From: a virus
Lineage: Duplodnaviria; Caudoviricetes
Length of the DNA stretch: 64,000 nucleotides
Reading direction: 5' to 3' (one strand)
Virus record (IMG/VR): IMGVR_UViG_3300048881_000780
Position 1 is the first letter of the stretch. Each line of letters begins with the position of its first letter. The notes under the pieces were generated by a model. The model saw nothing but the letters and a program-made list of their open reading frames with translations. It did no database searches and was not told the DNA's origin. Position numbers and translations under genes: made by a program. Shown piece after piece: positions 18,006-58,862 of the stretch.

Positions 18006-18221
18006 AACACACCTTCCTTAATATATTTCAAACTTTTATTAAAAGTCTTTTCAATTTAATTCTATTACTGATAAATCGGCTCTTCAAGAAAAATAGTATA
18101 ACGAATTTTGTTATATTTTAAATTTGCCTATTTTCAACCACTTATACACATACATTCTAGTTTTCTTGAGCGATTCTAAAGAAACCTTAAGAAAAATTTG
18201 CCAAATATTCTTGATACTAAG

Positions 18222-18245
18222 GTTCGATTCTCGCCACCTCCACCA
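18222..18245 (+). other. ssrA: 3-prime fragment of tmRNA (or Ala-type tRNA-like end); att-like core
   Basis: GTTCGATTCTCGCCACCTCCACCA = T-loop, 3' T-stem, acceptor strand with U70, A73 and CCA; 5' T-stem arm absent. Confidence 0.75.
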
Positions 18246-18298
18246 AAAATGTTGATTAATAAAGGGTATCGGAATGATTTGTGAAAAATATTAAAAAA

Positions 18299-21919: not shown

Positions 21920-23473
21920 CTACAAGAATCCATTAAATAAACAACTAGACTCATTGTACTTATAGTAAAATCTATATGTCGGACCATCGTCTCTCTTATA
22001 TGTAACATCAACAAAATACTCTCCGTTTCGATAGATTAAACTCTCATCTGAACCAGCCAGTATCGTTGCACCAAATAGTTCATCTTTAAATATCTGAGGT
22101 ATTGTTGAAGAAATACAGCTTGGTGCATCTCCTTGAATAACATTTGCACCAAGATCAATATCCGAATTATTTTCAGGTTGAATTAAGAATGTTCTACTGT
22201 ATTTAGTATCATTTCCACCTACGATTAAATTAAACTCACTTGACTCTGCTCCAAATTGATCAGTTAGAGACATAACCATTACAAATGATTCCGTTTTTGC
22301 GCTTAACTCACATCGAATATCTGTAACATCACTTTGATCCATGCCAAGACAATTTCGAAGTGTTACTCCACTTGTTAATCCTAGGATATTGTTTATATTA
22401 AAGCTAACAACTCTAACATCTCCGTCATCTGTATTTGGAATAAGTTGAGGAAGTTTTATATCAAAGCTTAAACCATTTCTAGAATCCTCGACTCCGTTAT
22501 GAAGAAGAGGAGTAAAACTATCTTCTCCAAGTTGCCATTCAACATTAAAACTAGTTTGACCACTTGATAGAGCTAATTGACAGGCATACTGAGAACCCCT
22601 CTCTAGAATCGAGCTTTCATCAACAATGAACTCTCTCTCTAAATATGACCCCGAATTTCGTGCCGCGATTTCATTTGGGTCTTGAGGATTGACTTTAATT
22701 TTTTCTGTACAAGAGTACGGATCACATGGCCAACCAATTGGAGATGAAACCCATTTTAAATCACTAGTATTCATTGAGTTCGCATTTCTAATTAATTGAT
22801 CTTGCACACTAGATCCACTTGGAGCACAATTACAATATGGCCCAATGATATCCATTCTACATTTAATTTTCTTTCTTCTTTTTACACAGTATCTTTGTTC
22901 AAAGGTAGCATTACAAACTCTCTTTGATTTATTGATTACAATATTCTGTATACCTTGCAATGCACTCTTATCTTCATAACCAGCTGGACATGAAAAGGTT
23001 TGTTCAATTTTTTGAATATCTGAAGGAGTACATCTTGAAGTATCTACATTGTGATCTAATAGAAATTGATTCTTTATTGATTGTCCGTAATCTCCATTCA
23101 TTATATTGCTGGCGCAAATTTCTGAACTATCTATACCTCTCTCACCACTTCTTCCATTTAAGTTGATAGAGATATTATCAAGTAGTCCCGTTAAAAATAC
23201 TATATTTGAAGCATTCTCATCTACATTTCTAGAGGGCATATTAATACTAGTAGACCTTAGCTCCTTTGAATAAAATCTAAATTCATCTATATTTTCGAAT
23301 ATAGGATCAGTAATAAAGTTTAATACTTCTTCTTGTGCCCAATATGTCGGTACAATAGTTCCTAAGTCATTAATATCATCATTTATACAACCCAAATTAG
23401 ATGAACAAGTCACCTCTTGAGAGTAACTACATAATGTAATTATAAATATGAAAAAAACCCTTAAGTACTTCAT
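21920..23473 (-). CDS. Secreted Cys-rich hypothetical protein
   Basis: Signal peptide, many Cys. Confidence 0.8.
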   Translation of the reverse strand: MKYLRVFFIFIITLCSYSQEVTCSSNLGCINDDINDLGTIVPTYWAQEEVLNFITDPIFENIDEFRFYSKELRSTSINMPSRNVDENASNIVFLTGLLDNISINLNGRSGERGIDSSEICASNIMNGDYGQSIKNQFLLDHNVDTSRCTPSDIQKIEQTFSCPAGYEDKSALQGIQNIVINKSKRVCNATFEQRYCVKRRKKIKCRMDIIGPYCNCAPSGSSVQDQLIRNANSMNTSDLKWVSSPIGWPCDPYSCTEKIKVNPQDPNEIAARNSGSYLEREFIVDESSILERGSQYACQLALSSGQTSFNVEWQLGEDSFTPLLHNGVEDSRNGLSFDIKLPQLIPNTDDGDVRVVSFNINNILGLTSGVTLRNCLGMDQSDVTDIRCELSAKTESFVMVMSLTDQFGAESSEFNLIVGGNDTKYSRTFLIQPENNSDIDLGANVIQGDAPSCISSTIPQIFKDELFGATILAGSDESLIYRNGEYFVDVTYKRDDGPTYRFYYKYNESSCLFNGFL

Positions 23474-23477
23474 ATCT

Positions 23478-23485
23478 CTATTATA
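23478..23485 (-). promoter_or_regulatory. Class II promoter motif (TATAATAG), leaderless geometry
   Basis: AAAAAAAGAA-TATAAT-AGAGAT-ATG. Confidence 0.55.
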
Positions 23486-23518: not shown

Positions 23519-23548
23519 TTGACACGCTACGTTAACCATGGTTATAAT
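23519..23548 (+). promoter_or_regulatory. Sigma70-type promoter containing an operator variant
   Basis: TTGACA-18 nt-TATAAT-6 nt-ATG; operator variant TGACACGCTACGTTA at 23520-23534. Confidence 0.7.
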
Positions 23549-23554
23549 TGAAGC

Positions 23555-24277
23555 ATGAATAATAATAACGGCGCTGGCCTGATAAAGAAATTCATCCCCC
23601 TAATCCCTGGTAGTATTAAAGTCGTGGGACTCTTCTTAGTCTTAAAGATTTCATGTCATATATTAGGACTTCAGAACATACCAGATTGGGTTTTTGGACT
23701 ATTTTCTCTTCCGGCCCTCTTAATGGGAAAGAGTGCCTACTTTGCTACATTCTTTGCAATGTCTACAAATAATGCATTTAAAATGTACTTAGAGGGTGAG
23801 AAGAATTATGATCTCATCGTTGCTGGACTAACTTTAGCAGTTTCTTTCTACGTCATAGGATTCTTAATTAATCCCATGAAGTCTCTACTATTTAGACTTA
23901 ATCCCTTTTCATATCTCTTTAAAAGAAGAAGATATAAAAAAGGTCAGGAAGTTTCTTATCATGTGGATCACATATTTCCTCGAAGTTTATTTCCGCACTT
24001 ATGCTTAGAACCAAGGAACCTACAAATTCTTTGTAATTTTTGTAATATAAAAAAGTCAAATCACACATTCATTGACTATAGGGGTGACCAGAAAAGATAC
24101 GTCAATCAGCCAGTTGCGATTAATTTAAGTAATCATCCAACTGGACAAAAGGGAATGGCCCTTGCAGAAATTGGCGTTCGAGACGACTTCTACTCTAGTT
24201 CTCTTTGGAGAAAGCAGAGAAAGAAGGCCCTCGATAAGTATGGTAAGAAATGTATGAATAAGTCATGTCCTCACTGA
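23555..24277 (+). CDS. Membrane-anchored HNH endonuclease with circularly permuted motif order
   Basis: N-terminal TM segments; HVDHIFP...NLQILCNFCNIKKSN followed by FYSS.LWR...KYGKKCMNKSC. Confidence 0.85.
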   Translation: MNNNNGAGLIKKFIPLIPGSIKVVGLFLVLKISCHILGLQNIPDWVFGLFSLPALLMGKSAYFATFFAMSTNNAFKMYLEGEKNYDLIVAGLTLAVSFYVIGFLINPMKSLLFRLNPFSYLFKRRRYKKGQEVSYHVDHIFPRSLFPHLCLEPRNLQILCNFCNIKKSNHTFIDYRGDQKRYVNQPVAINLSNHPTGQKGMALAEIGVRDDFYSSSLWRKQRKKALDKYGKKCMNKSCPH

Positions 24278-25685: not shown

Positions 25686-26357
25686 CTACTTAATATTCTT
25701 TCCATACAAGAAACGACACAGACTCATATTGGCCTTAACTCTTTTTCTTGTTTCTGATTCATATTTTTTGTCACACTTATAATCTTTCTTTATTTGATTA
25801 ATTTCTTTTAAATAATCATTTCTCTTGTTAACATCTTCATTGGCAAAATCGGCCATCAATCGCCTGAGAACTTCTCCCACTTTTTCAGCACACTTCATTT
25901 TCTCACTATGAATATTTAAATACTCACCATCTACTTCACAAGCTAAACTCGTATTACTATAGTGAACACGTACTTTTACTCCATCAAAATCCACAAAAAA
26001 GTAATACATTAAATCTTCGTCAAAATCAGGATTCAACTCCTTCATCTCCTTAACAAACTCTGTATATTTCTTACGTGAAATTTCATCGACCATTCTATTT
26101 TCTTTATAGTGCTCCATCATTGAGTTCTTAGAAACTCTATCAAATTTCATTATCTTATAATCAGAAAGAACTTTATCAATAGCCGACTCCAATCTTGTCC
26201 TTGGTGGTTGCATTGCTAGAATATTAATTGATAATACAAATATTAGAAAAATCTTAGTTGCCACGAAGAAAACTCCCTTGTTCTGTTCTACCTTCCAGAT
26301 AGAATTCATAACTTCCCTCTTCAATAGACCCGTCACTTCTTCTTGTACCTGGTACAT
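25686..26357 (-). CDS. Secreted hypothetical protein (true start probably near 26270)
   Basis: Signal-like ATKIFLIFVLSINILA follows a GTG with SD. Confidence 0.7.
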   Translation of the reverse strand: MYQVQEEVTGLLKREVMNSIWKVEQNKGVFFVATKIFLIFVLSINILAMQPPRTRLESAIDKVLSDYKIMKFDRVSKNSMMEHYKENRMVDEISRKKYTEFVKEMKELNPDFDEDLMYYFFVDFDGVKVRVHYSNTSLACEVDGEYLNIHSEKMKCAEKVGEVLRRLMADFANEDVNKRNDYLKEINQIKKDYKCDKKYESETRKRVKANMSLCRFLYGKNIK

Positions 26358-26706
26358 AAACGGGTCTAACCTTTACTGGGTAATCATCTGGAACATCACT
26401 AGACATTGACATTACCATTTCGTTAATTATCTTTTCCTTTTCCTTGAAAATCTTCTTTTCTTTATTACCGTATTTTTCATCGTAGTGATCAAAGATAAAG
26501 TACCCTGCACCTCCTAGAGCAACACCTACAAGTAAGCTTGTTTTGATATCTTGGCCAGATAAGTACATAGCACTGGTACCACCAACGAATCCAACAGTTG
26601 TCTCGAGCATAGGACCTTGAACCCATCTATCAAGTAGAGTTCTCTCGCTTGCTAAAGAAGAAAACGTAATTAAGAATGCTGTAAGTAATACTAAAATAGT
26701 TTTCAT
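26254..26706 (-). CDS. Secreted glycine-zipper protein with a TraV-like C-terminal motif
   Basis: Signal peptide, GFVGG/GVALGGAG, VRPVYVPG...DG...EGSYEFY. Confidence 0.7.
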   Translation of the reverse strand: MKTILVLLTAFLITFSSLASERTLLDRWVQGPMLETTVGFVGGTSAMYLSGQDIKTSLLVGVALGGAGYFIFDHYDEKYGNKEKKIFKEKEKIINEMVMSMSSDVPDDYPVKVRPVYVPGTRRSDGSIEEGSYEFYLEGRTEQGSFLRGN

Positions 26707-27145: not shown

Positions 27146-27898
27146 CTAAAATACCAAGAGTGGATTTCTATGCATATTTGTATAGTAATCTTCAATATAT
27201 TTAGATGTAATGGCCTCTTTTTTAAATGAAATTACATAAAGTCCATTTTTGTTTCTATGCGCTTTACCATCAGCAGTCCTAAGAGGAAAACCTTGTCCCA
27301 CAAGGAGGCTAATTCTAACCGCACCAGCAGTTCTATCAAAAACCTCATCTCTCTTTTTCTTGCTTCGATCAAATAACTGAATTCTCTCTCCAATAATGGA
27401 TACATAGAAATTTCCATTTGGAGTTTTTCTAATATCTTCAATGGCGGCAATTCCAAAATACCAAGAACAAGCACATCTCTCGAGCTCCTCTGCTCTCTTT
27501 CCAGAGAACGCGAACTCTTCTTCAACCTTTAATCTCTCTGGACCAATTGAATAGAATATGGCCTTCTTAAGAGAGTGGTTGATTCCATCAAGCTTATATC
27601 GATTTCCATTAATATCTTCAGAGAAATTAATAAGACTCTCATTCATTCTTAGTTGAGTATACTTAAGAGAGAATTGATACAGATTTGCTAAATCATTTTG
27701 CATAGATGTACTCTGCATTCCCATGACCATAGGAAATGTATAAAAATTCTTCGAAGGATCAAGAACAACTGTCTCTTCTCTCGACTTCCAAATTAGTACA
27801 CTTAAGCTTAGAAATATTAAGCAAAGAATAGATACAAACCCTAGAGACAGAGCGATCTTTTCATATTTTGAAATTTTGTTTATATCAATTATCTTCAT
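27146..27898 (-). CDS. Bitopic VirB8/TraE-like transfer protein
   Basis: Single N-terminal TM; C-terminal N..GLYV..F typical of VirB8; operon context. Confidence 0.55.
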   Translation of the reverse strand: MKIIDINKISKYEKIALSLGFVSILCLIFLSLSVLIWKSREETVVLDPSKNFYTFPMVMGMQSTSMQNDLANLYQFSLKYTQLRMNESLINFSEDINGNRYKLDGINHSLKKAIFYSIGPERLKVEEEFAFSGKRAEELERCACSWYFGIAAIEDIRKTPNGNFYVSIIGERIQLFDRSKKKRDEVFDRTAGAVRISLLVGQGFPLRTADGKAHRNKNGLYVISFKKEAITSKYIEDYYTNMHRNPLLVF

Positions 27899-27902
27899 GA
27901 AT

Positions 27903-27910
27903 CTATTATA
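27903..27910 (-). promoter_or_regulatory. Class II promoter motif (TATAATAG), leaderless geometry, just after the sigma gene
   Basis: ATAAATAATT-TATAAT-AGATTC-ATG. Confidence 0.55.
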
Positions 27911-27912
27911 AA

Positions 27913-28815
27913 TTATTTATCAGTGGTTCTGATGCGATTTAACAATTGTCGATACTCATTATCTATGGCCTTAAAGCTTGCGAGATCTCCTTTTCCAGAG
28001 AATTCTTTTTGAATATCTTTTTTAGTAATATCAAATACATAGCGAAGGATTACATAGCGATAACACTCCGGAGAAATATCATCCATGTAGTCATTTAAAA
28101 TATGGATTAGTTTGGTATCTTTAACTACCTTAGTAAAATCAATCTCTTCACCTCTTGATATCTCCAGGTGATTCAATTCTAATTTATCCATCAACTCCTT
28201 AAAAGAAGTGAGATAATCCCTCTCAATGCCTCCTGCTGAGTTAACTAGTTGATGAATGGAATTAACTTTATCAATAGCATCGATATAATCTCGATATAAA
28301 GATTTCTCATCTTCAGTTAATTCTTCATTGATTTTTATCTTATCGAAAACTTTATTTTCTTTTAGCTTTTTTTGAATAATTAAAATTTGGCGCTCTAAAT
28401 TTCCCTTGTTAGTTGTAATATAGCGAGATCTCTTTTCATCAAGGATATGATTGGCCAGAAGTTTTTGAGCAAAACCTGTAAAGAAGTCATCATATGAAAT
28501 ACTCTCGACCTTATATAAGGACTTATCAAATTTATCTAATACTTTATTAAATAACTCCCATGCGTAGCCCAAGTGAGGGCCTTCAAACTGTCCTTTAGTT
28601 AAATCCCAGTTATTTTCATATGGAGCACTCTTACAGATCAATCGATTGGCATCTGAACTCATTTTAAAGCAAAATCTTTTAAAGAAAAAAGAAAAGTGCT
28701 TATTAAAAAAATGGTCCCTCTCTTTTTTATTAAGAGGACTTTTAGGAGGTGTCGCAGTCTTATATATTTTTGGACTGTGATCTTTTCCCTCTTTAATTGA
28801 AAACAAGTCTTCCAT
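27913..28815 (-). CDS. Divergent sigma-70 family factor
   Basis: Region-2-like LFNKVLDKFD...FTGFAQKLLANHILDEKR; region-4-like LNDYMDDISPECYRYVILRYVFDITKKDI. Confidence 0.65.
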   Translation of the reverse strand: MEDLFSIKEGKDHSPKIYKTATPPKSPLNKKERDHFFNKHFSFFFKRFCFKMSSDANRLICKSAPYENNWDLTKGQFEGPHLGYAWELFNKVLDKFDKSLYKVESISYDDFFTGFAQKLLANHILDEKRSRYITTNKGNLERQILIIQKKLKENKVFDKIKINEELTEDEKSLYRDYIDAIDKVNSIHQLVNSAGGIERDYLTSFKELMDKLELNHLEISRGEEIDFTKVVKDTKLIHILNDYMDDISPECYRYVILRYVFDITKKDIQKEFSGKGDLASFKAIDNEYRQLLNRIRTTDK

Positions 28816-28822
28816 AATGATC

Positions 28823-31171
28823 CTAGTTTGAATAAATCACAATCATCTTTTTCTTATTTGCATAGAACACTTCAGAAGAAGAACCAATATCTTTAACTAG
28901 AAAATCTGAAACCGTCTGAGTTGTCGCTTGCCCAGCAGATACAAGTCCACCAGTAATCTCATTGGCAACTGTATCCTCTCCATTTTCATCACTTGGAGCA
29001 AGAACACCAATTGATTTAATTAAAGTTTGTACAATCTCTGAAGCGAAGACCTCTCCAATCTTAGATAATCTATTACCCCAAGCTTGACCTCTTAGTTCTC
29101 CAGTAAAGTTAACTGTATGAGTCTTTCCGCCTATTCTTAGAGTATTAAAATTAATAGTAGCTACTTTAGTATCTAGAGAGAAACTTCCTGTTTTACCAAT
29201 TAAAATACTCCCCTCAGGGATAACGATTTCACCCGTAGTTGGATGACGTATATCACGAGTGATTAAGGCCTGAGATCTCTTGGCCTTTACATTATCTGAG
29301 ATATATGTCTCCGTAACCATAACCGCCTGAAGTTCTTCACCTGGTGGAAGTATAGATTTCTTTCTAGGATCTTTAGAGTATACTGACAGTTTTGACAGAT
29401 CACCTCTAAGTTCTCCGTCTTTGTTAATAGAAGAAGGGTCTACACTAGCAAACTCATCTCTAATAGAGTTATTGTCACCATCTATATCGTCATTAAGTAA
29501 GTCTTTTAACTCATTAGTACTCATATCATTTAAAGTTTTACCATAAACAACCTTTTGAGCTCTCTCGTTAAATCCTTTATCTTTTTGAATCTTATTAATT
29601 AATTTCTTTTTAAGTAAATTACCTGAACTACTTAAAGATTTTTTATTTCTAATGAAGTATCTATTCTTAATTAGATCCTTGTTAATTAAAATGTCATCGC
29701 ATTTAACAAGTTTAATATCACTATCGCTTAAGGCGTCACCGTAAACCTTAGAAATAGATTTTTGAGAAGAATATAAATCCTTCTTAATCTTCTTAGCGTC
29801 AATTGAAAAATCTCTCTCTAGCTTCTTAAGTAATAATGCCTTCGACCTAATTTTTTCTCTAATGGCCTCACAAGTTTTGTGAAGTTTGAATTCATTTGGA
29901 GATAGAACATCTCCGGCCTTAAGTTTATCTATAATCTTTTCATATTTCTCACCAGAGCAGTTTTCCTTTAAAAACTGTCTGAGCTTTTGGATATCCGAAA
30001 AGTTATCTAGTAAATTATCTGCTAGATCTACAATATTAGAATCTTTATTACTTGCAAATAATGTTGAACCAAATAAGTCCTTGGCCCTATCTTTAAGATC
30101 TCCATCTAGAGAGTCAAATAGTCCCGCCAAAAGTCCAGAGTCTCTAAGTTTCTTAAGAAGAGCATCCCTTTGTTTTTCAGATAGATTATCTAATAAACCT
30201 TGATCAAATAACTCCTTCATCGCATCTTCATCAATTGAACCGGAATCTATACCCTGATTAATTAAATCTAATAAATTATTCTTATCTAAATCCTTTAAAT
30301 TATCAGAAATATCTTTAATACTTTGTGGACTTAGAGTATTTCCTGAGTTTAAAAATTCAGAAAGTGCTTTTGAAACCTCATCATTATCTAATTTTTTAAG
30401 CGCGTCTCCAATTAGAGGAATAGGTAGTCCATCAGGTCTCTCTCCCTCTCCTTTTAACCAAGAAAGTAAATCGTCCTTTTGTTTCTCGTCAAGGGCCATG
30501 ATCTCAGCAAGATTTCCGATTCTCTCACCATCTAGTAGCTTATTGGCCAAATACTCCTCTAAGCTTCCTTCTTTAATATCACCGCTGGCAACCTTTTTGA
30601 GTAAATCGATCTCCGCGTCGGATAGACCAAGCTCTTTGGCCTTTTTTAACATTTCAATTGCTTTTAATTGAGAATCCGATAAACCACCAGGGTTTTCATC
30701 TAGACATTGTTTATAAGTTTGCTCTTCTTCTTTGGTTAACTCTTTACCGGAAATTACTTTATCAAATAAATCCTGACAAATATCTGGATCTATATCTAAA
30801 TCGTTAGTCGCTGCAATTTGATTATTTTGTGATCTACGATTTAATTCATCTTTGATTTTTTTAATTTGTTCTTTTTGTCGCTTTACTAAATCAGTATCAG
30901 TATCCAGCTTATCTTGCTCTCTTTCTGTGTCATTAAATTCTTTCTTAGTCGCATCAAATGTATTGATATCATCTTTCGTTGTAACTAAAGACATAATCAA
31001 TACGGCCAGAATCCCACTCACAACCAGCGTGATACCAATAGGTTTCATTTTAGAAGGAGTAAACATCTTTCCATTTGAAACTTCGTCTCTTTTATCTAAT
31101 GTTTTATTTTTTTTCTTATCGACTCTATCTTTTATCCAAAGATAAGCGTCTCTTATTTTATTTTTAATCAT
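28823..31171 (-). CDS. virB10: VirB10/TrbI-like T4SS core protein with an enlarged helical middle region
   Basis: N-terminal TM; C-terminal LPPGEELQA.M.T / A.ITRDI / VIPEGSILIG / INF..L TrbI motifs. Confidence 0.75.
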   Translation of the reverse strand: MIKNKIRDAYLWIKDRVDKKKNKTLDKRDEVSNGKMFTPSKMKPIGITLVVSGILAVLIMSLVTTKDDINTFDATKKEFNDTEREQDKLDTDTDLVKRQKEQIKKIKDELNRRSQNNQIAATNDLDIDPDICQDLFDKVISGKELTKEEEQTYKQCLDENPGGLSDSQLKAIEMLKKAKELGLSDAEIDLLKKVASGDIKEGSLEEYLANKLLDGERIGNLAEIMALDEKQKDDLLSWLKGEGERPDGLPIPLIGDALKKLDNDEVSKALSEFLNSGNTLSPQSIKDISDNLKDLDKNNLLDLINQGIDSGSIDEDAMKELFDQGLLDNLSEKQRDALLKKLRDSGLLAGLFDSLDGDLKDRAKDLFGSTLFASNKDSNIVDLADNLLDNFSDIQKLRQFLKENCSGEKYEKIIDKLKAGDVLSPNEFKLHKTCEAIREKIRSKALLLKKLERDFSIDAKKIKKDLYSSQKSISKVYGDALSDSDIKLVKCDDILINKDLIKNRYFIRNKKSLSSSGNLLKKKLINKIQKDKGFNERAQKVVYGKTLNDMSTNELKDLLNDDIDGDNNSIRDEFASVDPSSINKDGELRGDLSKLSVYSKDPRKKSILPPGEELQAVMVTETYISDNVKAKRSQALITRDIRHPTTGEIVIPEGSILIGKTGSFSLDTKVATINFNTLRIGGKTHTVNFTGELRGQAWGNRLSKIGEVFASEIVQTLIKSIGVLAPSDENGEDTVANEITGGLVSAGQATTQTVSDFLVKDIGSSSEVFYANKKKMIVIYSN

Positions 31172-32152
31172 CTATAACTCCACGCCCATCTTCTTAAATT
31201 TCTTGTAACCCTCTCTAAGATTAATCAAAGTCTTTGAGTAACTCTTATGGTCATGATCAATCATATATAAATAAAAGAATCCTCTCTCTTTTATATATTT
31301 CTTTGAGACAAATAATTTAAAGTCCATGGCCCAAGTTGGCATACCTTTTTGTTTAGTTTCGTATTGAGTAACATAAGGAAGAACTCTGTACTGAATTGGC
31401 AATAAATTAAACTCGAGGGAATCAAATGCTTTAAACTCAATCTTTTTTAGATTTTTAATTTTGACATGCTCAGGATTAATATTTACAGAAATAGAAAGAG
31501 AGATGAAATCTTCTTCACTACTTGCGGCTAAAGCATCATAGTTGACTTGATAATACTCGCCCGTTCTTTCGTAGTTATAGGTATTTTCAATAATAAAATT
31601 TCTTGGGTGAAGCATTACTGAATTCTTACTATTGGTTACCTTCTTTCCAATTTCAGCTGAAATAGGATAATCATCAGCACCTCTACAGTCAGTACCAATG
31701 ATCTCAAAGTTATAAGAGTCTCTCGTGGCATTATCTAACTCTACTCTAATTCCAGATAGAACTTTAATTCGTTTCTTTGATAATTTAACAGGTTCCTTTA
31801 GCTGGACTTTTACGGCCCTTTTAGACTTCGTCATGCTAACATCAATAAGGTCATTATATTTACTTACATCGTGGACATCCTCAATAAATGTCTCATCAAA
31901 TTCAATTGTTAAATACCTATTAAAACAAACAAAAACTTCCGCAGTATCTCCAGGGCCCATTAATTCTTTTACAATTCTTGGGTCGTTTCTTCTTACAGAA
32001 AAGTATTTATTATTCTTTCCTTTTTTTATCGCGATAGGATCATAAACCTTGCTCTTAGTTGAATCTGCAAATGATGCCCCAGACAATAGAAATAATATTG
32101 TTACTATGATATTTTTCATTACTTTATATCTCCTAATTTCCACAGACCCCAT
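31172..32152 (-). CDS. VirB9/TraK-like secreted core protein (true start probably near 32119)
   Basis: Signal MKNIIVTILFLLSGASFA; V.V.FN..LTIEF; lies between the VirB8-like and VirB10-like genes. Confidence 0.55.
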   Translation of the reverse strand: MGSVEIRRYKVMKNIIVTILFLLSGASFADSTKSKVYDPIAIKKGKNNKYFSVRRNDPRIVKELMGPGDTAEVFVCFNRYLTIEFDETFIEDVHDVSKYNDLIDVSMTKSKRAVKVQLKEPVKLSKKRIKVLSGIRVELDNATRDSYNFEIIGTDCRGADDYPISAEIGKKVTNSKNSVMLHPRNFIIENTYNYERTGEYYQVNYDALAASSEEDFISLSISVNINPEHVKIKNLKKIEFKAFDSLEFNLLPIQYRVLPYVTQYETKQKGMPTWAMDFKLFVSKKYIKERGFFYLYMIDHDHKSYSKTLINLREGYKKFKKMGVEL

Positions 32153-32838
32153 TTACTTCTTCGCTCCCCACTAATTGGGTCATAGATATACTGAAACTTA
32201 AATCCCTCATAGTAGAGACCAGATAGGGATTCATTCTTCTTTGCATCATGGAAACCTATATGAAGAAACATCTTTGCGTAAAAAACAGCTTCTTTTGAAT
32301 TTCTTCTTTTAACTAAAATACCTTCAACTGTTACAACCCACCCCTTACTAGGGTCATTGGCGTCAATTCTTCTTTGTCTATACTTTTCTTTAGTATGCAC
32401 AGGATAAAAATCCCAGCGATCACCAAAACTCAATTTCTCTTTATATTTATGAGATTCATCTAAATAGGCATCAAAAATATCCTTTAATCTTCCGTGTGAA
32501 TTATCTCTTAAATACTTAAACCTTAAATCAAATAAATTCTGATCTTTAGTAAAGAAGGCCTGATAAAATCTTCTAGTAACGGCTCTTAATTTTCTTTCTT
32601 GAAATACTGCACTCTTTTCTTCTGTTACTTTTACAAGAAAAGTTTCCTGATCTACTGAATATGTATTGTCTGGGAAATAAGTGATTACTCTTTGATCTGA
32701 AAGAAATTTATATCCCACAAAGAGACAAAGTAAAATTGACGTCATCAAAGCGGAGATAACCACCAATTGCTTGATTCCCTCTTCTTTTTTTTCAATCTCT
32801 TTTTCTTTTAAAGACTCAGCTAATGACTTATTACTCAT
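32119..32838 (-). CDS. Bitopic VirB8/TraE-like transfer protein
   Basis: Single TM, WVVTVEG, SGLYY..F; directly precedes the VirB9-like and VirB10 genes. Confidence 0.55.
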   Translation of the reverse strand: MSNKSLAESLKEKEIEKKEEGIKQLVVISALMTSILLCLFVGYKFLSDQRVITYFPDNTYSVDQETFLVKVTEEKSAVFQERKLRAVTRRFYQAFFTKDQNLFDLRFKYLRDNSHGRLKDIFDAYLDESHKYKEKLSFGDRWDFYPVHTKEKYRQRRIDANDPSKGWVVTVEGILVKRRNSKEAVFYAKMFLHIGFHDAKKNESLSGLYYEGFKFQYIYDPISGERRSKWGLWKLGDIK

Positions 32839-32858: not shown

Positions 32859-32873
32859 TAACATAACACGTTA
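32859..32873. promoter_or_regulatory. Palindromic operator upstream of virB8-virB9-virB10-sigma
   Basis: TAACATAACACGTTA. Confidence 0.75.
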
Positions 32874-32913
32874 TTATTATAACCTATTTAGAAACGATAA
32901 TTTTTATAGGTGC

Positions 32914-34064: not shown

Positions 34065-34079
34065 TAACACTTGGCGTTA
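34065..34079. promoter_or_regulatory. Palindromic operator upstream of the phosphoesterase
   Basis: TAACACTTGGCGTTA running into TAATAT. Confidence 0.8.
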
Positions 34080-34126: not shown

Positions 34127-36712
34127 ATGAAAATTTTAGCTATGCAATTTGAAGGACTAGTAAGAGCATTTGGTCTAAAGAGTGATAGAAAAGTATTCAA
34201 AAAGATGTTAGATACATCCAAATTTTCACCAAAAGAGATTGAAGAGTTTTCTAAAGTAAAAGTAACTAAAACTGAACTAAAGAAAATGAATACTTCATTT
34301 GCTGAAAAATTTCTAATAAGAACAATGAACGATGCAAATAATTTGCAAGCAGTACTATGTGAAGTCTCTAACTTCTCTATGGGTATCGTCGCTCCGTTTT
34401 TATCATTTTACTCAGATGAAATTTTAGCGCTTATCAGTCAGGCCAGAGAAAGCTACCTAAAAGAGGTGGCCACTAGCACAGTAGAATCTTTTGAAAGAGA
34501 ATTAAGTACTGAAATTGAATATGACGAGAGTATGTTTAATGAAAAAATGATTAACTCTCAAATTCTAGTAGATTCAAACCTTAAAGAGAGAATGGAGAGA
34601 GTTCAAATCATTGAGTGCTTCTTTAAGAAGGCAACCGTAATTAATATTTTAAATACTTCAAATTTAAATTTAAGCGAAATGGCCACAAATGCCTTTGCAA
34701 CTATTGGTGTTACAAATCCTTCAACTATTCAATCTCTAGTTGATAGAATCCAAGATGATATGCCTAGCGAATTTCCTTATATGTTTACACCTAAGGGATC
34801 TTCAATTGAGACATCAATGTACTACAAGGATATAGATAGTATCGCAAGATACGCCAAAAAGATTAGTCCTGAAAAATTTAGAGAGATTACTTCAAAATAT
34901 TATGAACAAATGGTTTCAACATGTTCAAACTTCTATGTTCAAGCATATCGAGCGAAGAAGTACTATGATAAGAATCCAACGAGACAAGAGATTCTTGACC
35001 AGGGGATTTCTTCATCAGACTTTAAAAGATTCTTTGTTAATGCAAAACTAGCGTTCTCACTATCAAGAGTATTTGTACCTGAAGAACTTATCGAAAACTA
35101 CACGCCAGAAGAGTTATGGAATAAAGAAATATCAAATAGAGCCAAAAAGGAAATTAAAGAATGCCAAAGACTTTATATTTCTAGTATGGGTCAAGGTGGC
35201 GTTTCTGAGGATCTTAATACACTTTTATTTATGGCAAAAGTAAATGGTGGAAGAGTATTTCTAATGCCTGTTAAGCACACTGTACACAAGCTTGACCCTA
35301 AAATTTTAAGAATGCACTTACAAGGTGAACTTACAGTTCTTTTTGAAAGTATGAAAATCAATAGTAACCTTTATCTAGATTGCCTAGAAATTAAAGGGAC
35401 AGCTAGAAGACCTCTTAATGGTTTAGATAGCTACCGTGGTGGAAAATTTAAAAGAAACCACGATATGAGAGACAATCCTTCAATTATTATTGCAGGAACA
35501 AAACAAATTTTAAAATCTATTGCCACTGGTGGTACTCGTCACGCTAGAGTTAGCTATACGCCAGGTGCAATCACTAAACCTTTTTATCCATCTAAGACAT
35601 ATATGAAGTCTAAGGCCAATGCGCTAGCAACTGAAGAGCACTTTATGGGAGCTTTAGTTGTAGAAAAAGATGTAAGAGATACATTCCACGTTAGACAATT
35701 AATGTTTCAGGATAATTTCTCTTGTGTTGATATGGGTATTAGATATTTTCAAGATAGAGCGGAAACAACAAATGCTCAATGTGTAGTATACGGTGATATC
35801 CACTCTGATGACCTAGATAGAAAAGCACTTAAACTATTTACAGATTTAGCAGTTTCTCTTGATACTAAAGAATCTGTTATTCAAGATATTTACGATGCGG
35901 CATCTACAAATCCACATGAAGCAAAGAACCAAACTAAGAAAATGGCAACTGCTCTAGAAGGAAAAGCACACGCAAAAGATGAACTGCAACTACTAAGAGA
36001 TGATCTTAACTTCTTTGGAAAGAGATATGAAAAGACTTACATCCCTTACTCAAATCACGATGATATGTTCACTAGAGCATTTAACTCTAATGAAATTAAC
36101 AACAATCCATTCAACGCCATTTTAGCGTCAATCCTTATGCCGATGGCCATTAATACCAACCTAAGACACCACTACTCTTCTGAACAAATTCTAGAGCAAT
36201 GGTCAAAGGGAACTGGTATTAGTAAGAAAGTTCTAAAGAGACAATATCCTTTCTTAGACTCTAAGAAGCAATTACTACAATATGTAATGGAAGATCTTTT
36301 CGAATTAAAGAATCCAGGTAAGTTTAAGTGGTTTGAGCTCTATAGTGAACACAGAATTGGTGGTTACAATGTAGCAGTTCATGGTGATAAAGGTGCAAAC
36401 GGAGCGAGAGGAAGCCATCAGGCCAATTGTAAGATAGATAAGAAACAAATCTCTGGTCACACTCACGTAGCTGCCCAAATGAACCACAATATCAGTGTAG
36501 GCCATCTTCATCAGGTAGAAGGTGGTGTAGGCCCTCAGTACGCCCTAGGAGGCGCCAGCTCTTGGATGCAGACTTGTGTTTACATCTATGAAACGGGAGA
36601 GGCCCAATTGATCACCAATATCAATGGAAGACTACAAAATAATGTTGGTAGACTTACTCCACAAAATTTTAAATCAACTTATAAGAAAAGAATGAAGTCT
36701 CTACAGGCATAG
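34127..36712 (+). CDS. Large protein with C-terminal calcineurin-like metallophosphoesterase (jumbo-phage-type family)
   Basis: GDIH, QDIYD....PH, SNHDD, HGDKGANGARG, GHTH, SSW motifs. Confidence 0.85.
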   Translation: MKILAMQFEGLVRAFGLKSDRKVFKKMLDTSKFSPKEIEEFSKVKVTKTELKKMNTSFAEKFLIRTMNDANNLQAVLCEVSNFSMGIVAPFLSFYSDEILALISQARESYLKEVATSTVESFERELSTEIEYDESMFNEKMINSQILVDSNLKERMERVQIIECFFKKATVINILNTSNLNLSEMATNAFATIGVTNPSTIQSLVDRIQDDMPSEFPYMFTPKGSSIETSMYYKDIDSIARYAKKISPEKFREITSKYYEQMVSTCSNFYVQAYRAKKYYDKNPTRQEILDQGISSSDFKRFFVNAKLAFSLSRVFVPEELIENYTPEELWNKEISNRAKKEIKECQRLYISSMGQGGVSEDLNTLLFMAKVNGGRVFLMPVKHTVHKLDPKILRMHLQGELTVLFESMKINSNLYLDCLEIKGTARRPLNGLDSYRGGKFKRNHDMRDNPSIIIAGTKQILKSIATGGTRHARVSYTPGAITKPFYPSKTYMKSKANALATEEHFMGALVVEKDVRDTFHVRQLMFQDNFSCVDMGIRYFQDRAETTNAQCVVYGDIHSDDLDRKALKLFTDLAVSLDTKESVIQDIYDAASTNPHEAKNQTKKMATALEGKAHAKDELQLLRDDLNFFGKRYEKTYIPYSNHDDMFTRAFNSNEINNNPFNAILASILMPMAINTNLRHHYSSEQILEQWSKGTGISKKVLKRQYPFLDSKKQLLQYVMEDLFELKNPGKFKWFELYSEHRIGGYNVAVHGDKGANGARGSHQANCKIDKKQISGHTHVAAQMNHNISVGHLHQVEGGVGPQYALGGASSWMQTCVYIYETGEAQLITNINGRLQNNVGRLTPQNFKSTYKKRMKSLQA

Positions 36713-38214: not shown

Positions 38215-39093
38215 TCAGATATCCTGTTTTAAGAATAATTGCCCGCGCTGGCGAAGTTTTAACAACCTCTTCATTACTCTATTTGGAGCAACTTCCTTAA
38301 ACTCACCTCTGCGATAATCGACCTTTGAAATCCCAGTATCTTTAATCTCTTTAATGATTCTCCAATAAGGAAATTCTGGAAAGTGAACTAATATATCCGC
38401 TACTAATGAAGTTACTATGGCCGCAGATTGAGAAGTTCCCGATTTAACACTGAGAGCGTCTCTCTTATAAAATGAAATAATATCCTCTCCATCAGCGAAA
38501 ATATCCACTAAGTTACCGTAATTAGAGAAATTTGAAATCTCTCCTCCCTTGCCACTACCGACGCTTAAAATATTGTCCTGATCATAACAGGCCGGGTAGT
38601 AACAACTCTCCTTTCTTAGGTATTCACCTGGATGTTTATTTCCAGCACTTGAGACAATGATAATTCCTCTCTTCTTTGCCTTTTTAACTAACTCTAATTC
38701 CACCTCATCTGGATAAGGACCACCACCTGAATAATTAATTACATCGGCCTTAATATTAAAAATCGCATACTCTAGGGCCCTATTGTATTCCTTCACGGTT
38801 TCCTCTTCTGATAAATAGGGATCTATAGCGAGAGAGACAATCTTTACATCTGGATGAGTATTTAAGGCAATAATTCCGGCCACATGGGTACCATGATTAC
38901 TATTTTTATCAAAATCCCTATAAAGAGAGCGGATTTTACCATTTCTAAATTCTCTATTTTTATCCATTAGAAACTTATTTTTTAGCGATTTATCAAAGCT
39001 CCCAAGGCCAGTGTCGATAACCGCAACAACAATATCCCCAGCATGAGAATTGATAGCGATAAGTAAATAAAGAATCACAAGAACTTTTTTCAT
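38215..39093 (-). CDS. Secreted S8 subtilisin-like serine protease (no evident propeptide)
   Basis: VIDTG, HGTHVAG, SAGN, GTSQ; signal peptide leads directly into the catalytic Asp strand. Confidence 0.92.
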   Translation of the reverse strand: MKKVLVILYLLIAINSHAGDIVVAVIDTGLGSFDKSLKNKFLMDKNREFRNGKIRSLYRDFDKNSNHGTHVAGIIALNTHPDVKIVSLAIDPYLSEEETVKEYNRALEYAIFNIKADVINYSGGGPYPDEVELELVKKAKKRGIIIVSSAGNKHPGEYLRKESCYYPACYDQDNILSVGSGKGGEISNFSNYGNLVDIFADGEDIISFYKRDALSVKSGTSQSAAIVTSLVADILVHFPEFPYWRIIKEIKDTGISKVDYRRGEFKEVAPNRVMKRLLKLRQRGQLFLKQDI

Positions 39094-39097
39094 GTGA

Positions 39098-39105
39098 CTA
39101 TTATA
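39098..39105 (-). promoter_or_regulatory. Class II promoter motif (TATAATAG), leaderless geometry
   Basis: TAAAAAAATT-TATAAT-AGTCAC-ATG. Confidence 0.55.
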
Positions 39106-55811: not shown

Positions 55812-56612
55812 CTAAAGAATTAGACCATCGATAAAGGGAGTTAGGATAGCTAATAATTCGGATTCTCTCTTAGGGTCAGGTATGTTTCCATTATTCATAT
55901 CAACCAAGAGTTTCTTCATCGTGTATGAGTTCTTGGCCATATTAGTTATGACAGCTGATAAATCACTGCCAGCTAAAAGAAATTGAATTCTAGATGCAAA
56001 AATGGATATCCACAGGCCATCTTCGTCACCAATGTATTTTTCAAAGAGAGATTCATTCCTATCTTCATGAAAGTCATCATCAAGATCAGGGCAAAGAGTC
56101 TTCACATTCTGTAAAACAACTTTTATATCAACGGCATCCTTTCTTCTAACTTCAGAGTGGCACCAACTTGATAATTTAAGGGCAATTAACATCTCTGGTA
56201 TAATCACTTTAACGGCAGTATCAGCTAAATTAATATCTACTGCACATTCAAAGGCCTTATTAAAACCCATAACCTTCATTCTAGACCTAAAAGGCCTTGG
56301 CCACTTAATTGTTTCAGAATCTCCAGCAATATCACCAAATGGAATCAAATCAATTGGGATTTCTCCTAATAATAATCGATAGGATTTTTCGGGATCTTCT
56401 TTCATCGACTTCTCAGTCTTTAAAAGTTCTTTAATCTTTTTAAATTCATCCCAATCCTTCACCAGTATAGCAAAGTCGACATCTCTCGTTTTTATACCCT
56501 GGGGTAAACTTCTTTCTTCAAAGTAAATATCTCTTGCGAGAGCTCCAATAACAATGAAGTCAATTGCTTCTCTATTAAATATTTTAGATATTTCTACCAC
56601 TATGTCTTTCAT
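55812..56612 (-). CDS. AbiEii-like nucleotidyltransferase toxin (type IV TA)
   Basis: IGALARD, TRDVDF, ALK, KDAVD. Confidence 0.85.
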   Translation of the reverse strand: MKDIVVEISKIFNREAIDFIVIGALARDIYFEERSLPQGIKTRDVDFAILVKDWDEFKKIKELLKTEKSMKEDPEKSYRLLLGEIPIDLIPFGDIAGDSETIKWPRPFRSRMKVMGFNKAFECAVDINLADTAVKVIIPEMLIALKLSSWCHSEVRRKDAVDIKVVLQNVKTLCPDLDDDFHEDRNESLFEKYIGDEDGLWISIFASRIQFLLAGSDLSAVITNMAKNSYTMKKLLVDMNNGNIPDPKRESELLAILTPFIDGLIL

Positions 56613-57615
56613 TTAGTATTTTCTTGGCCTTATTGAGGTACTTCTTAAATCTAACTTCTCCAGCTTCCTTAACTCTTTGATCACTAGAGTTCATTAATTC
56701 CGCACTTATAATAATATCGTGAGCAAACTGAGCTCTATCTCTTAAGTCTAATCGAGTTGGATAGAGAACTACACTACCTCTATTATCCGGAATTAGTCCC
56801 AATCTCTTATAAAGTGATTTTTGAGATTTAGTCTCCATAAAAATAGACATCTCAAGAGCGTTATCAAGATAACCGTCTCTCTTTATACAATCAATTCTTG
56901 GGCCACTTAGCGCCCACAAACCATCGTTAAGTTCATTACTGGCTATATCTATAAGTTCATCATTACTTAGCTTTGTTTTAAATCTGGCATACTCTTTCTT
57001 TGTCTTATATTGAGAAAGAATAAATCTCCACCTCTCAAAGTAAGTTTCTATATTGGTCAGGTGATACCCGTCATTAATTTTCACAATAAGATTTTCTTTT
57101 TCCATACTCTTAAGTGTTATGTTGACGGTGGCCGCGGATTTACCAATTAGCTCTCCGATCTCGGCCTGAGTTAAATCTAGGAGTCCATGGTTTTTAAAGA
57201 ATAGATACCCGATTGGAAATTCATTTAAGACACTAGAAGATCTGGTCTGCTCTTTCTTTTCTTCCGAGTAAAATGAATCACTGGAAATTAAATGCAGTGG
57301 TATATAGAAGTGATTTTCATTATCAATATATCCAATCCCTTTTTCCTTTAGAAACCTCATCTGCTCTTCGTTTAGATAACTAGAATAAATGATCACTCTC
57401 TCATACTCTGAAAGTTGAATAATATCTCTAATGTCACTTTTAATATCAAAGGATTCATTTAACTCAACTAATATTACCGCCAAAGTGGATCTTCCTAGAG
57501 AGATGGAAGCTCGCTGGACCGATCTACCATTACCAAGTAGTAGAGAGTCTCTATATTGAAATTCGAGACCAGTATGATTAAATATGATTTCACTTATATT
57601 ACTCATATTTAACAC
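56584..57615 (-). CDS. AbiEi-like antitoxin/transcriptional regulator
   Basis: GYIDNEN..I, central wHTH TQAEIG.LIGKS.ATV, C-terminal AELM.S.D.R..EAG; overlaps the toxin start. Confidence 0.75.
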   Translation of the reverse strand: MLNMSNISEIIFNHTGLEFQYRDSLLLGNGRSVQRASISLGRSTLAVILVELNESFDIKSDIRDIIQLSEYERVIIYSSYLNEEQMRFLKEKGIGYIDNENHFYIPLHLISSDSFYSEEKKEQTRSSSVLNEFPIGYLFFKNHGLLDLTQAEIGELIGKSAATVNITLKSMEKENLIVKINDGYHLTNIETYFERWRFILSQYKTKKEYARFKTKLSNDELIDIASNELNDGLWALSGPRIDCIKRDGYLDNALEMSIFMETKSQKSLYKRLGLIPDNRGSVVLYPTRLDLRDRAQFAHDIIISAELMNSSDQRVKEAGEVRFKKYLNKAKKILNERHSGRNI

Positions 57616-58257: not shown

Positions 58258-58548
58258 TTAAGCGACGTTCTTATATTTTAACTCAACCTTTTTCCCTAAT
58301 GATGATAAAACTCTAATTAATCTATCTATAGTTACTCTCTGTAAACTCCCATTTACAACTCCAGTTACAGTAGATCTAGAAACTCCTGATAACTCAGATA
58401 CCTCTTTGTGAGTAAGTTTCTTTTTTTCTATAGTTTTGATGATTTCTTTTGTTAGACTAGCTTTCATTTGTGCAATTACGCCATTCTCACTAGTCAGCCC
58501 AAGAGCAACTGCCAGTTCAGAAGTATTTTTATATGTTTTAGATTTCAT
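58258..58548 (-). CDS. HigA-like XRE antitoxin
   Basis: LTHKEVSELSGVSRSTV...TIDRL. Confidence 0.85.
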   Translation of the reverse strand: MKSKTYKNTSELAVALGLTSENGVIAQMKASLTKEIIKTIEKKKLTHKEVSELSGVSRSTVTGVVNGSLQRVTIDRLIRVLSSLGKKVELKYKNVA

Positions 58549-58862
58549 TACAGACCCCTAATGCGCTTTTTCACAAGCTCAATTGTTTTCAGTGGTGTTT
58601 TATTAGATTTTTTTTGAAAAGCGTGAATAACGTAAATCGCATCCTTCTTTCTTATAACGTAAAAAACTCTATATATTCCATTTCTATCTTTAAGTCTTAA
58701 TTCATGTGTATCTTTATCAATACTAGGCATATGCTTAGATAGTGGCATACTAAGAAATACCCCTTCTCGAAGCTTGGATATGGCATCTAAAAAATCCTCG
58801 AGCACTTCTCTTGGAAACTTTTTCAACTCTTTTTCACATACGTTTAGTACTTTTATATCCAC
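58548..58862 (-). CDS. RelE/HigB (Gp49-like) toxin
   Basis: ELR......YRVFY......YVIHAFQKKS.KTP; toxin-first order; stop overlaps the antitoxin start. Confidence 0.9.
   Translation of the reverse strand: MDIKVLNVCEKELKKFPREVLEDFLDAISKLREGVFLSMPLSKHMPSIDKDTHELRLKDRNGIYRVFYVIRKKDAIYVIHAFQKKSNKTPLKTIELVKKRIRGL

Follow-up and report, generated by a model that had tools for sequence, protein, structure and literature searches.

Relation to known systems

In the sigma-70 family, the Sigma70_r2 domain (PF04542) is a bundle of three or four helices that recognises the -10 element and binds to the clamp helices of the RNA polymerase beta-prime subunit, and region 4 (PF04545/PF08281), a C-terminal helix-turn-helix (HTH), recognises the -35 element and binds to the beta flap. 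Mobile elements can have dedicated factors of this type: the split sigma factor Sig7-8 of Tn916 is needed for excision and conjugation and drives conjugation genes, and SigN of pBS32 as well as the phage proteins T4 gp55-gp33 and SPO1 gp33-gp34 are treated in the same preprint (bioRxiv 10.64898/2026.10.01.756105). The subject of the present analysis is P0001, a 300-aa open reading frame on the minus strand (27913-28815) of a window of 64,000 nucleotides, which is the whole stretch of DNA that was analysed (IMG/VR virus record IMGVR_UViG_3300048881_000780). P0001 encodes a soluble orphan protein and is a candidate for a sigma-like or other HTH-type transcription factor. What it would share with Tn916 Sig7-8 and pBS32 SigN is the idea of an element-encoded sigma-type factor that is tied to transfer or other genes of the element. 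The regulatory idea as such is thus not new, as element-dedicated sigma factors are known from these two cases. The difference is that Sig7-8 and SigN are recognisable members of the sigma-70 family with demonstrated polymerase binding and are encoded in regulatory modules, whereas P0001 is unrecognisable for profiles and lies inside an operon for an envelope machine. A profile-invisible sigma factor with a long spacer that is embedded in an envelope-machine operon would be new, if true.

ECF (group 4) sigma factors, such as E. coli sigma-E, M. tuberculosis SigD, SigK and SigL, or S. coelicolor SigR, are similar to P0001 in two respects: the modelled C-terminal four-helix domain of P0001 superposes on their region 4, and a set of motifs resembling QE.F.K, LD.F, F..W and I..N...D..R is found at the expected place. 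P0001 has no HMM-level similarity to ECF sigma factors, a 95-residue spacer takes the place of their short linker, the putative sigma-2 part contains a 28-residue loop, the turn of the HTH is 5 residues longer, and there is no anti-sigma-like neighbour. With the late sigma-type factors of phages (T4 gp55 with gp33; SPO1 gp33-gp34), P0001 has in common that the nearest language-model neighbours of its N-terminal part are phage proteins of 164-176 aa, in whose clusters 39-52% of the members carry Sigma70_r2, and that promoters near P0001 have no -35 box and are dominated by the -10 element, like T4 late promoters. However, no sequence or fold match to gp55/gp33 or gp33-gp34 was obtained, and P0001 consists of a single chain whose tail is region-4-like. 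A third comparison concerns the IncP-1 regulators KorA, KorB and TrbA, as here, too, a plasmid-wide palindromic operator is found on core promoters, including that of the P0001 transfer operon, and KorA in complex with its operator is found, though weakly (Z 4.5), among the structural matches of P0001. In sequence, P0001 is not related to these regulators; it exceeds them in size and has its HTH at the C-terminus, and any binding of the operator by P0001 is putative.

A soluble orphan in an envelope-machine operon

P0001 begins with an ATG that is preceded by an AGGA ribosome-binding site (28821-28824). The intergenic stretch to the upstream gene (28816-28824, minus strand) consists of a 7-nt gap (28816-28822) plus 2 nt of the upstream stop codon and takes in this AGGA, which therefore overlaps the TAG stop of a 782-aa ORF (28823-31171, minus strand), so that the ATG of P0001 lies 7 nt past the TAG. 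The short spacing and the position of the AGGA over the stop codon suggest that translation of P0001 may be coupled to that of the upstream gene, which is VirB10/TrbI-like. The product of the latter is a bitopic inner-membrane protein with a single transmembrane helix (residues 41-59) and a C-terminal match to Pfam TrbI (PF03743; E 1.4e-4) that reaches 22 bits and thus stays below the 35-bit cut-off, while the homologous protein of plasmid pBdHM1 (E 1.3e-14) passes this cut-off with a TrbI score of 45 bits of its own. In a word search, the VirB10-like protein retrieved itself alone, and a VirB10 alignment gave zero matches against metagenome contigs. Further upstream follow a signal-peptide protein in VirB9 position (31172-32152, minus strand; homolog of a 490-aa pBdHM1 protein, E 4e-12) and a bitopic protein in VirB8 position (32119-32838, minus strand; homolog of a 219-aa pBdHM1 protein, E 9e-8). 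The topologies, which are bitopic, signal peptide and bitopic, fit the order VirB8-9-10, and the operon is type IV secretion-like. For two genes of this region the true start is uncertain: the longest-ORF start of 31172-32152 (minus strand) overlaps the upstream gene by 34 nt and that of 25686-26357 (minus strand) by 104 nt, and the Logan calls start later in both cases (315 aa and 207 aa, respectively).

Within a run of eleven envelope or exported proteins, P0001 is the only one that has neither a transmembrane helix nor a signal peptide. The gene directly downstream (27146-27898, minus strand) again encodes a bitopic membrane protein, of 250 aa, with a transmembrane helix at residues 12-30. 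As this helix leaves a cytoplasmic N-terminal tail of only about 11 residues, there is no room for an anti-sigma domain, and the protein is therefore not anti-sigma-like. A co-transcribed anti-sigma factor, which would be expected for an ECF system, is thus not encoded at this downstream position.

No family of Pfam, NCBIfam or PHROG matches P0001, and Pfam Sigma70_r2 and Sigma70_r4 remain silent even at E<=10, also when cut-out parts of the protein are used. A word-indexed search of 5.8 billion clustered proteins, both at default settings and at E<=10, and an exhaustive phmmer search of 1.84 billion representatives returned the query alone. With tblastn at E<=10, phages and plasmids gave only noise and IMG/VR gave zero matches; a sequence search of the PDB stayed at noise level throughout, and no paralogs were found within the 64-kb window. 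Nevertheless, the gene appears genuine. The GC content of the window, which belongs to a contig of up to 361 kb, is 31-38%, mostly about 33%, and P0001 is a 903-nt open frame within it; the 20.9 kb surrounding P0001 are base-for-base identical in the Logan assembly of run SRR35531919. The best explanation is that P0001 is a real, soluble and lineage-specific transcription factor.

The only relative of the VirB8/9/10-like trio that was found by tblastn in PLSDB is located on pBdHM1 of Bdellovibrio sp. HM001 (AP029175.1, 5539-9693). Three consecutive genes of this plasmid are colinear with the three consecutive window genes within 28823-32838, but there a DnaB-like helicase comes after the VirB10-like gene, and across the plasmid there are matches neither to P0001 nor to Pfam Sigma70_r2. 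As the syntenic pBdHM1 operon, albeit as one relative only, does without P0001, P0001 is not a core part of the machine. A small glycine-rich membrane protein encoded at 18035-18283 of pBdHM1 resembles the product of window positions 26254-26706 (E 1e-4). The shared trio and this glycine-rich protein hint that the kin of the element, and perhaps also its host, may be found in or near the Bdellovibrionota.

The operator ahead of the operon and the promoter-like site behind P0001

The palindrome TAACRY-N3-RYGTTA occurs with 14 matches (at most one mismatch), as compared to 1.7 expected. The operon is headed by a TATAAT box and, 2 nt on, the palindromic operator TAACGTGTTATGTTA (32859-32881, minus strand), with the operator copy itself at 32859-32873, 20 nt upstream of the gene that opens the run. 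From there to P0001, all gaps are <=14 nt, and a search for a convincing terminator found none. As judged from this arrangement, P0001 and the VirB8/9/10-like genes are predicted to stand under one operator-controlled promoter. A gene next to the operon and divergent from it (34127-36712, plus strand) is equipped with a separate operator copy at 34065; its product gives a match (E 1.3e-60) to phrog_1745, the family of the A1-like ‘DNA transfer protein’ of phage T5. When the A1-like nuclease was used as neighbour bait in metagenome and viral contigs, zero relatives were obtained.

On the other side of P0001, a promoter-like site of the arrangement CCACT-N11-TATAAT-N6-ATG (27896-27926, minus strand) overlaps the last codons and the stop codon of P0001. 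The sequence TTTATAATAG (27903-27912) follows directly past the stop; the TATAAT box is 6 nt ahead of the next ATG, and CCACT is 11 nt upstream of this box. Transcription from this site would start at the ATG of the next gene and would give a leaderless mRNA. In these points of architecture, the preliminary description of the locus holds: the gene indeed lies 7 nt downstream of a virB10 homolog, although the TrbI match is below the cut-off in the window and passes only in the pBdHM1 homolog; the operon is headed by a copy of the overrepresented palindrome, with no convincing terminator up to P0001; and a promoter-like site follows directly after it.

A TATAAT box exactly 6 nt before an ATG is seen at 23471-23485 (minus strand), 23543-23557 (plus strand), 27896-27910 (minus strand) and 39091-39105 (minus strand), so that besides the site at P0001 such boxes head the genes at 23473, 23555 and 39093. 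None of the four genes has a Shine-Dalgarno sequence, and two of them share an operator at 23520. The gene at 39093 (38215-39093, minus strand) encodes a subtilase (Peptidase_S8, E 8e-33) and has TTTATAATAG-N4-ATG ahead of it, as does the gene after P0001. This arrangement, too, would result in leaderless mRNAs. The enrichment of TATAAT-N6-ATG in the window is mild (5 versus 1.7 expected, p about 0.04), and overall there is no enrichment in the window of CACT-N10/11-TAWAAT (4 versus 1.9 expected) or of TAWAATAG (21 versus 16 expected). Such sites, which had been termed class II promoters, do not require a new sigma factor, as their TATAAT box is the housekeeping consensus that is read by the primary sigma factor.

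The C-terminal domain resembles sigma region 4

The structure of P0001 was modelled by AlphaFold2 in single-sequence mode, and the model as a whole is poor (pLDDT 41). Residues 231-300 at the extreme C-terminus (27916-28125, minus strand) are nevertheless predicted with a pLDDT of 62-83, and four helices are formed by residues 235-300. In an unbiased VIA-align comparison with 48,161 PDB representatives, this segment matched sigma domain 4 in 14 of the 16 best chains, among them SigD4, SigR region 4, sigma-28, CnrH, SigH, SigF, SigL, SigK, SigB, SigW and SigA region 4. The matches have Z-scores of 5.0-5.6, which is modest but inevitably so for a 65-residue domain, and rmsd values of 3.0-4.7 Å over 57-68 aligned residues. 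The LuxR-type domains of EsrB (Z 5.0) and DesR (Z 4.7) come lower in the same list, as does KorA in complex with its operator (Z 4.5). A Foldseek search with the whole P0001 model returned almost exclusively sigma factors among the top 50, none of them significant (E >= 0.5).

In hhalign, residues 219-296 align with region 4 (P 0.069), and sequence profiles of our own making gave p-values of about 0.03-0.07. In the hhalign alignment, ISPECYRYVILRY and the following HTH fall on regions 4.1-4.2, with a turn that is 5 residues longer than usual, and the HTH is formed by the last two helices. Regulators of the LuxR/GerE type have a four-helix C-terminal domain in which helices 2-3 make up the HTH and another helix serves dimerisation. 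The C-terminal 70 residues of P0001 are predicted to fold like sigma region 4, a conclusion supported by the modelled fold. It had been proposed in addition that this region 4 is degenerate. As far as charge is concerned, this argument is rejected, as the domain has a net charge of +1, which is within the range of reference sigma-4 segments.

A candidate region 2 and a long spacer

The case of region 2 is different. Residues 80-135 (28411-28578, minus strand) contain a candidate set of ECF-type region 2.2-2.4 motifs, which is statistically not robust: by eye and by hhalign, WELFNK, LDKF, FTGF and LLANHILDEKR (residues 84-130) can be aligned to the ECF motifs QE.F.K, LD.F, F..W and I..N...D..R. 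In hhalign, residues 92-132 fall on ECF region 2.2-2.4 (P 0.088), in the right order relative to the region 4 segment. The reference profiles were built from 14 ECF sigma factors of one Chryseobacterium genome and 14 sigma factors of groups 1-3 (ten from phages, four bacterial). Full-length sigma HMMs scored P0001 no better than shuffled sequences. With the ECF region-2 HMM, P0001 reached 4.3 bits, a score that was also reached by 37 of 5000 shuffles (p=0.007), and ranked first when 108 real protein pieces from the window were scored; its colinear score for regions 2 and 4 was reached by 14 of 5000 shuffles (p=0.003). With the broader 28-sequence region-2 profile, however, the score was -1.2 bits, which 1157 of 5000 shuffles reached (p=0.23), and the joint score of P0001 was exceeded by two unrelated proteins of the window. 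As the p-value moves from 0.007 to 0.23 with the profile used, the region-2 signal is not robust. The N-terminal extension of the divergently encoded A1-like protein (34127-36712, plus strand) obtains 5.4-5.7 bits with a sigma region-2 profile, which is above P0001; this is probably due to chance and illustrates the weakness of such scores.

When residues 25-141 were folded alone, the pLDDT was 60, and comparison of this model with the PDB and BFVD gave zero sigma-2 matches, the best match being ScpA with a Z-score of 4.6. Between the two candidate domains, residues 136-230 (28126-28410, minus strand) form an acidic spacer of long helices whose structure matches are coiled-coil-like only. ECF sigma factors connect regions 2 and 4 by a short linker, and the roughly 95 helical residues found here in its place thus deviate from the ECF layout. 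The protein-language-model neighbours are the only evidence that points to Sigma70_r2. In the ESM Atlas, the feature neighbours of whole P0001 are clusters with Sigma70_r2, Sigma70_r4 and HTH_23 (score 0.95), and when the HTH is left out and residues 1-225 alone are used, Sigma70_r2 is present in 23 of the 30 named neighbours (score 0.93), with phage clusters as the three best listed ones; the shared-feature counts of 110-159 out of 256 are in the range that the tool ascribes to chance or distant relatives. Altogether, the evidence for region 2 is weak.

The preliminary description had recognised motifs of both regions and, on this basis, a sigma-70-like protein. The region 4 part agrees with the fold (14 of 16 chains), but the region 2 part depends on the profile. 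Likewise, the sigma-70-like identity is in line with the C-terminal fold and the language-model neighbours, whereas the silence of Pfam at E<=10 and the absence of a sigma-2 match for residues 25-141 speak against it.

Possible functions of P0001

Which function can be assigned to such a protein? In our view, the chances are about even that P0001 is a very divergent, element-specific factor of the sigma-70 type. The C-terminal fold and the language-model neighbours make a sigma-like reading reasonable. While the ORF, its position, the operator, the sigma-4-like fold and the orphan status are actual observations, a sigma-2 domain, an interaction with core RNA polymerase and any promoters that P0001 might act on are inferred. 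The orphan status of P0001 and its absence from the pBdHM1 operon are counted against it. The layout would be an ECF-like sigma-2 domain, a 95-residue helical spacer and a sigma-4 domain. Once a global repressor is lifted from the operator, P0001 would be made along with the secretion machine, co-translated with the VirB8/9/10-like genes, and could then guide or assist RNA polymerase toward some other promoters of the element. That P0001 forms the second tier of a repressor-to-sigma cascade, as the preliminary description proposed, is conjecture. If P0001 is a working sigma factor, sigma-70-type factors can become so divergent that Pfam-level profiles no longer detect them, and a giant plasmid-like element would have wired a sigma factor straight into the operon of its secretion machine, which would also provide a candidate reader of the second promoter class.

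What alternatives exist for a sigma factor? P0001 may be a non-sigma DNA-binding regulator, in which a C-terminal domain of the sigma-4 or LuxR/GerE type is combined with a novel helical N-terminal or coiled-coil part, and we regard this as a serious, if somewhat doubtful, possibility. The C-terminal HTH is the only part of P0001 that has structural support, and the match list that contains the sigma domains also contains EsrB, DesR and the KorA-operator complex at Z-scores of 5.0, 4.7 and 4.5. Residues 130-197 match coiled coils only, which would be suited to dimerisation; the sigma profiles are not significant, and the model of the N-terminal domain is not sigma-2-like. Moreover, the operator regulon is real, and the promoters concerned carry the consensus TATAAT that is read by the primary sigma factor. 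Such a regulator could be a dimeric repressor of the palindromic operator, which would be autoregulated via its own operator-controlled operon. It could also act as an activator by recognising the CCACT box beside a housekeeping -10 box, comparable to MotA, the activator at T4 middle promoters. On the other hand, chains of sigma domain 4 rank above the LuxR-type and other HTH chains, the HTH consists of the last two helices and is preceded by L..(I)SP..R.V..LRY as in sigma region 4.1-4.2, and the N-terminal part attracts Sigma70_r2 neighbours when it is used alone. If P0001 is merely an HTH regulator, it would be among the few candidates for the global regulator of the element. Under either reading, sigma factor or regulator, the protein is small, soluble and easily testable.

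A more far-reaching version of the sigma factor reading, which we consider unlikely, is that P0001 founds a family of sigma-type factors that is invisible to profile libraries, is carried by giant plasmid-like elements, is produced along with their secretion machine, and reads CCACT-N10/11-TATAAT promoters that lack a -35 box. If true, this would mean that a conjugation-type element runs a T4-late-like, -10-dominated programme, in which many promoters start on the ATG itself, among them the site that overlaps the stop codon of P0001.

It is quite unlikely that P0001 acts as a cytoplasmic accessory of the secretion machine, for example as an adaptor, a chaperone or a relaxosome-type partner with an HTH-like tail that is past promoter binding. 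While the embedding of P0001 in the envelope-machine genes and its probable translational coupling to them would agree with such a role, there are zero links to known accessory families of type IV secretion systems in Pfam, NCBIfam or PHROG, P0001 is absent from the syntenic pBdHM1, and its one confident domain has a fold of the DNA-binding type. That P0001 is non-functional, i.e. an ORF that arose by chance or the remnant of a decaying gene, is hardly credible, as the lack of homologs in all protein searches is opposed by a frame that stays open over 903 nt despite 33% GC, by a Shine-Dalgarno site, the 7-nt coupling distance and the exact fit between the flanking genes, by the identity in a second assembly, and by a C-terminal domain that is foldable.

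Other potential regulators in the window

Two further loci of the window encode proteins with regulator-like domains. At 55812-57615 (minus strand), the gene of an AbiEi-like antitoxin or regulator (343 aa; HTH and AbiEi_2) overlaps that of an AbiEii-like nucleotidyltransferase (266 aa). As a pair, the two resemble type IV toxin-antitoxin or abortive-infection systems, with Pfam scores below the cut-off. The gene at 58261-58557 (minus strand), which comes just after a 104-aa ORF (58548-58862) and overlaps it by 10 nt, encodes a 99-aa Xre/HTH_37 protein (E 1.7e-14). This protein could be an antitoxin, and it is also a candidate, of the small dimeric-repressor type, for the protein that binds the palindromic operator.
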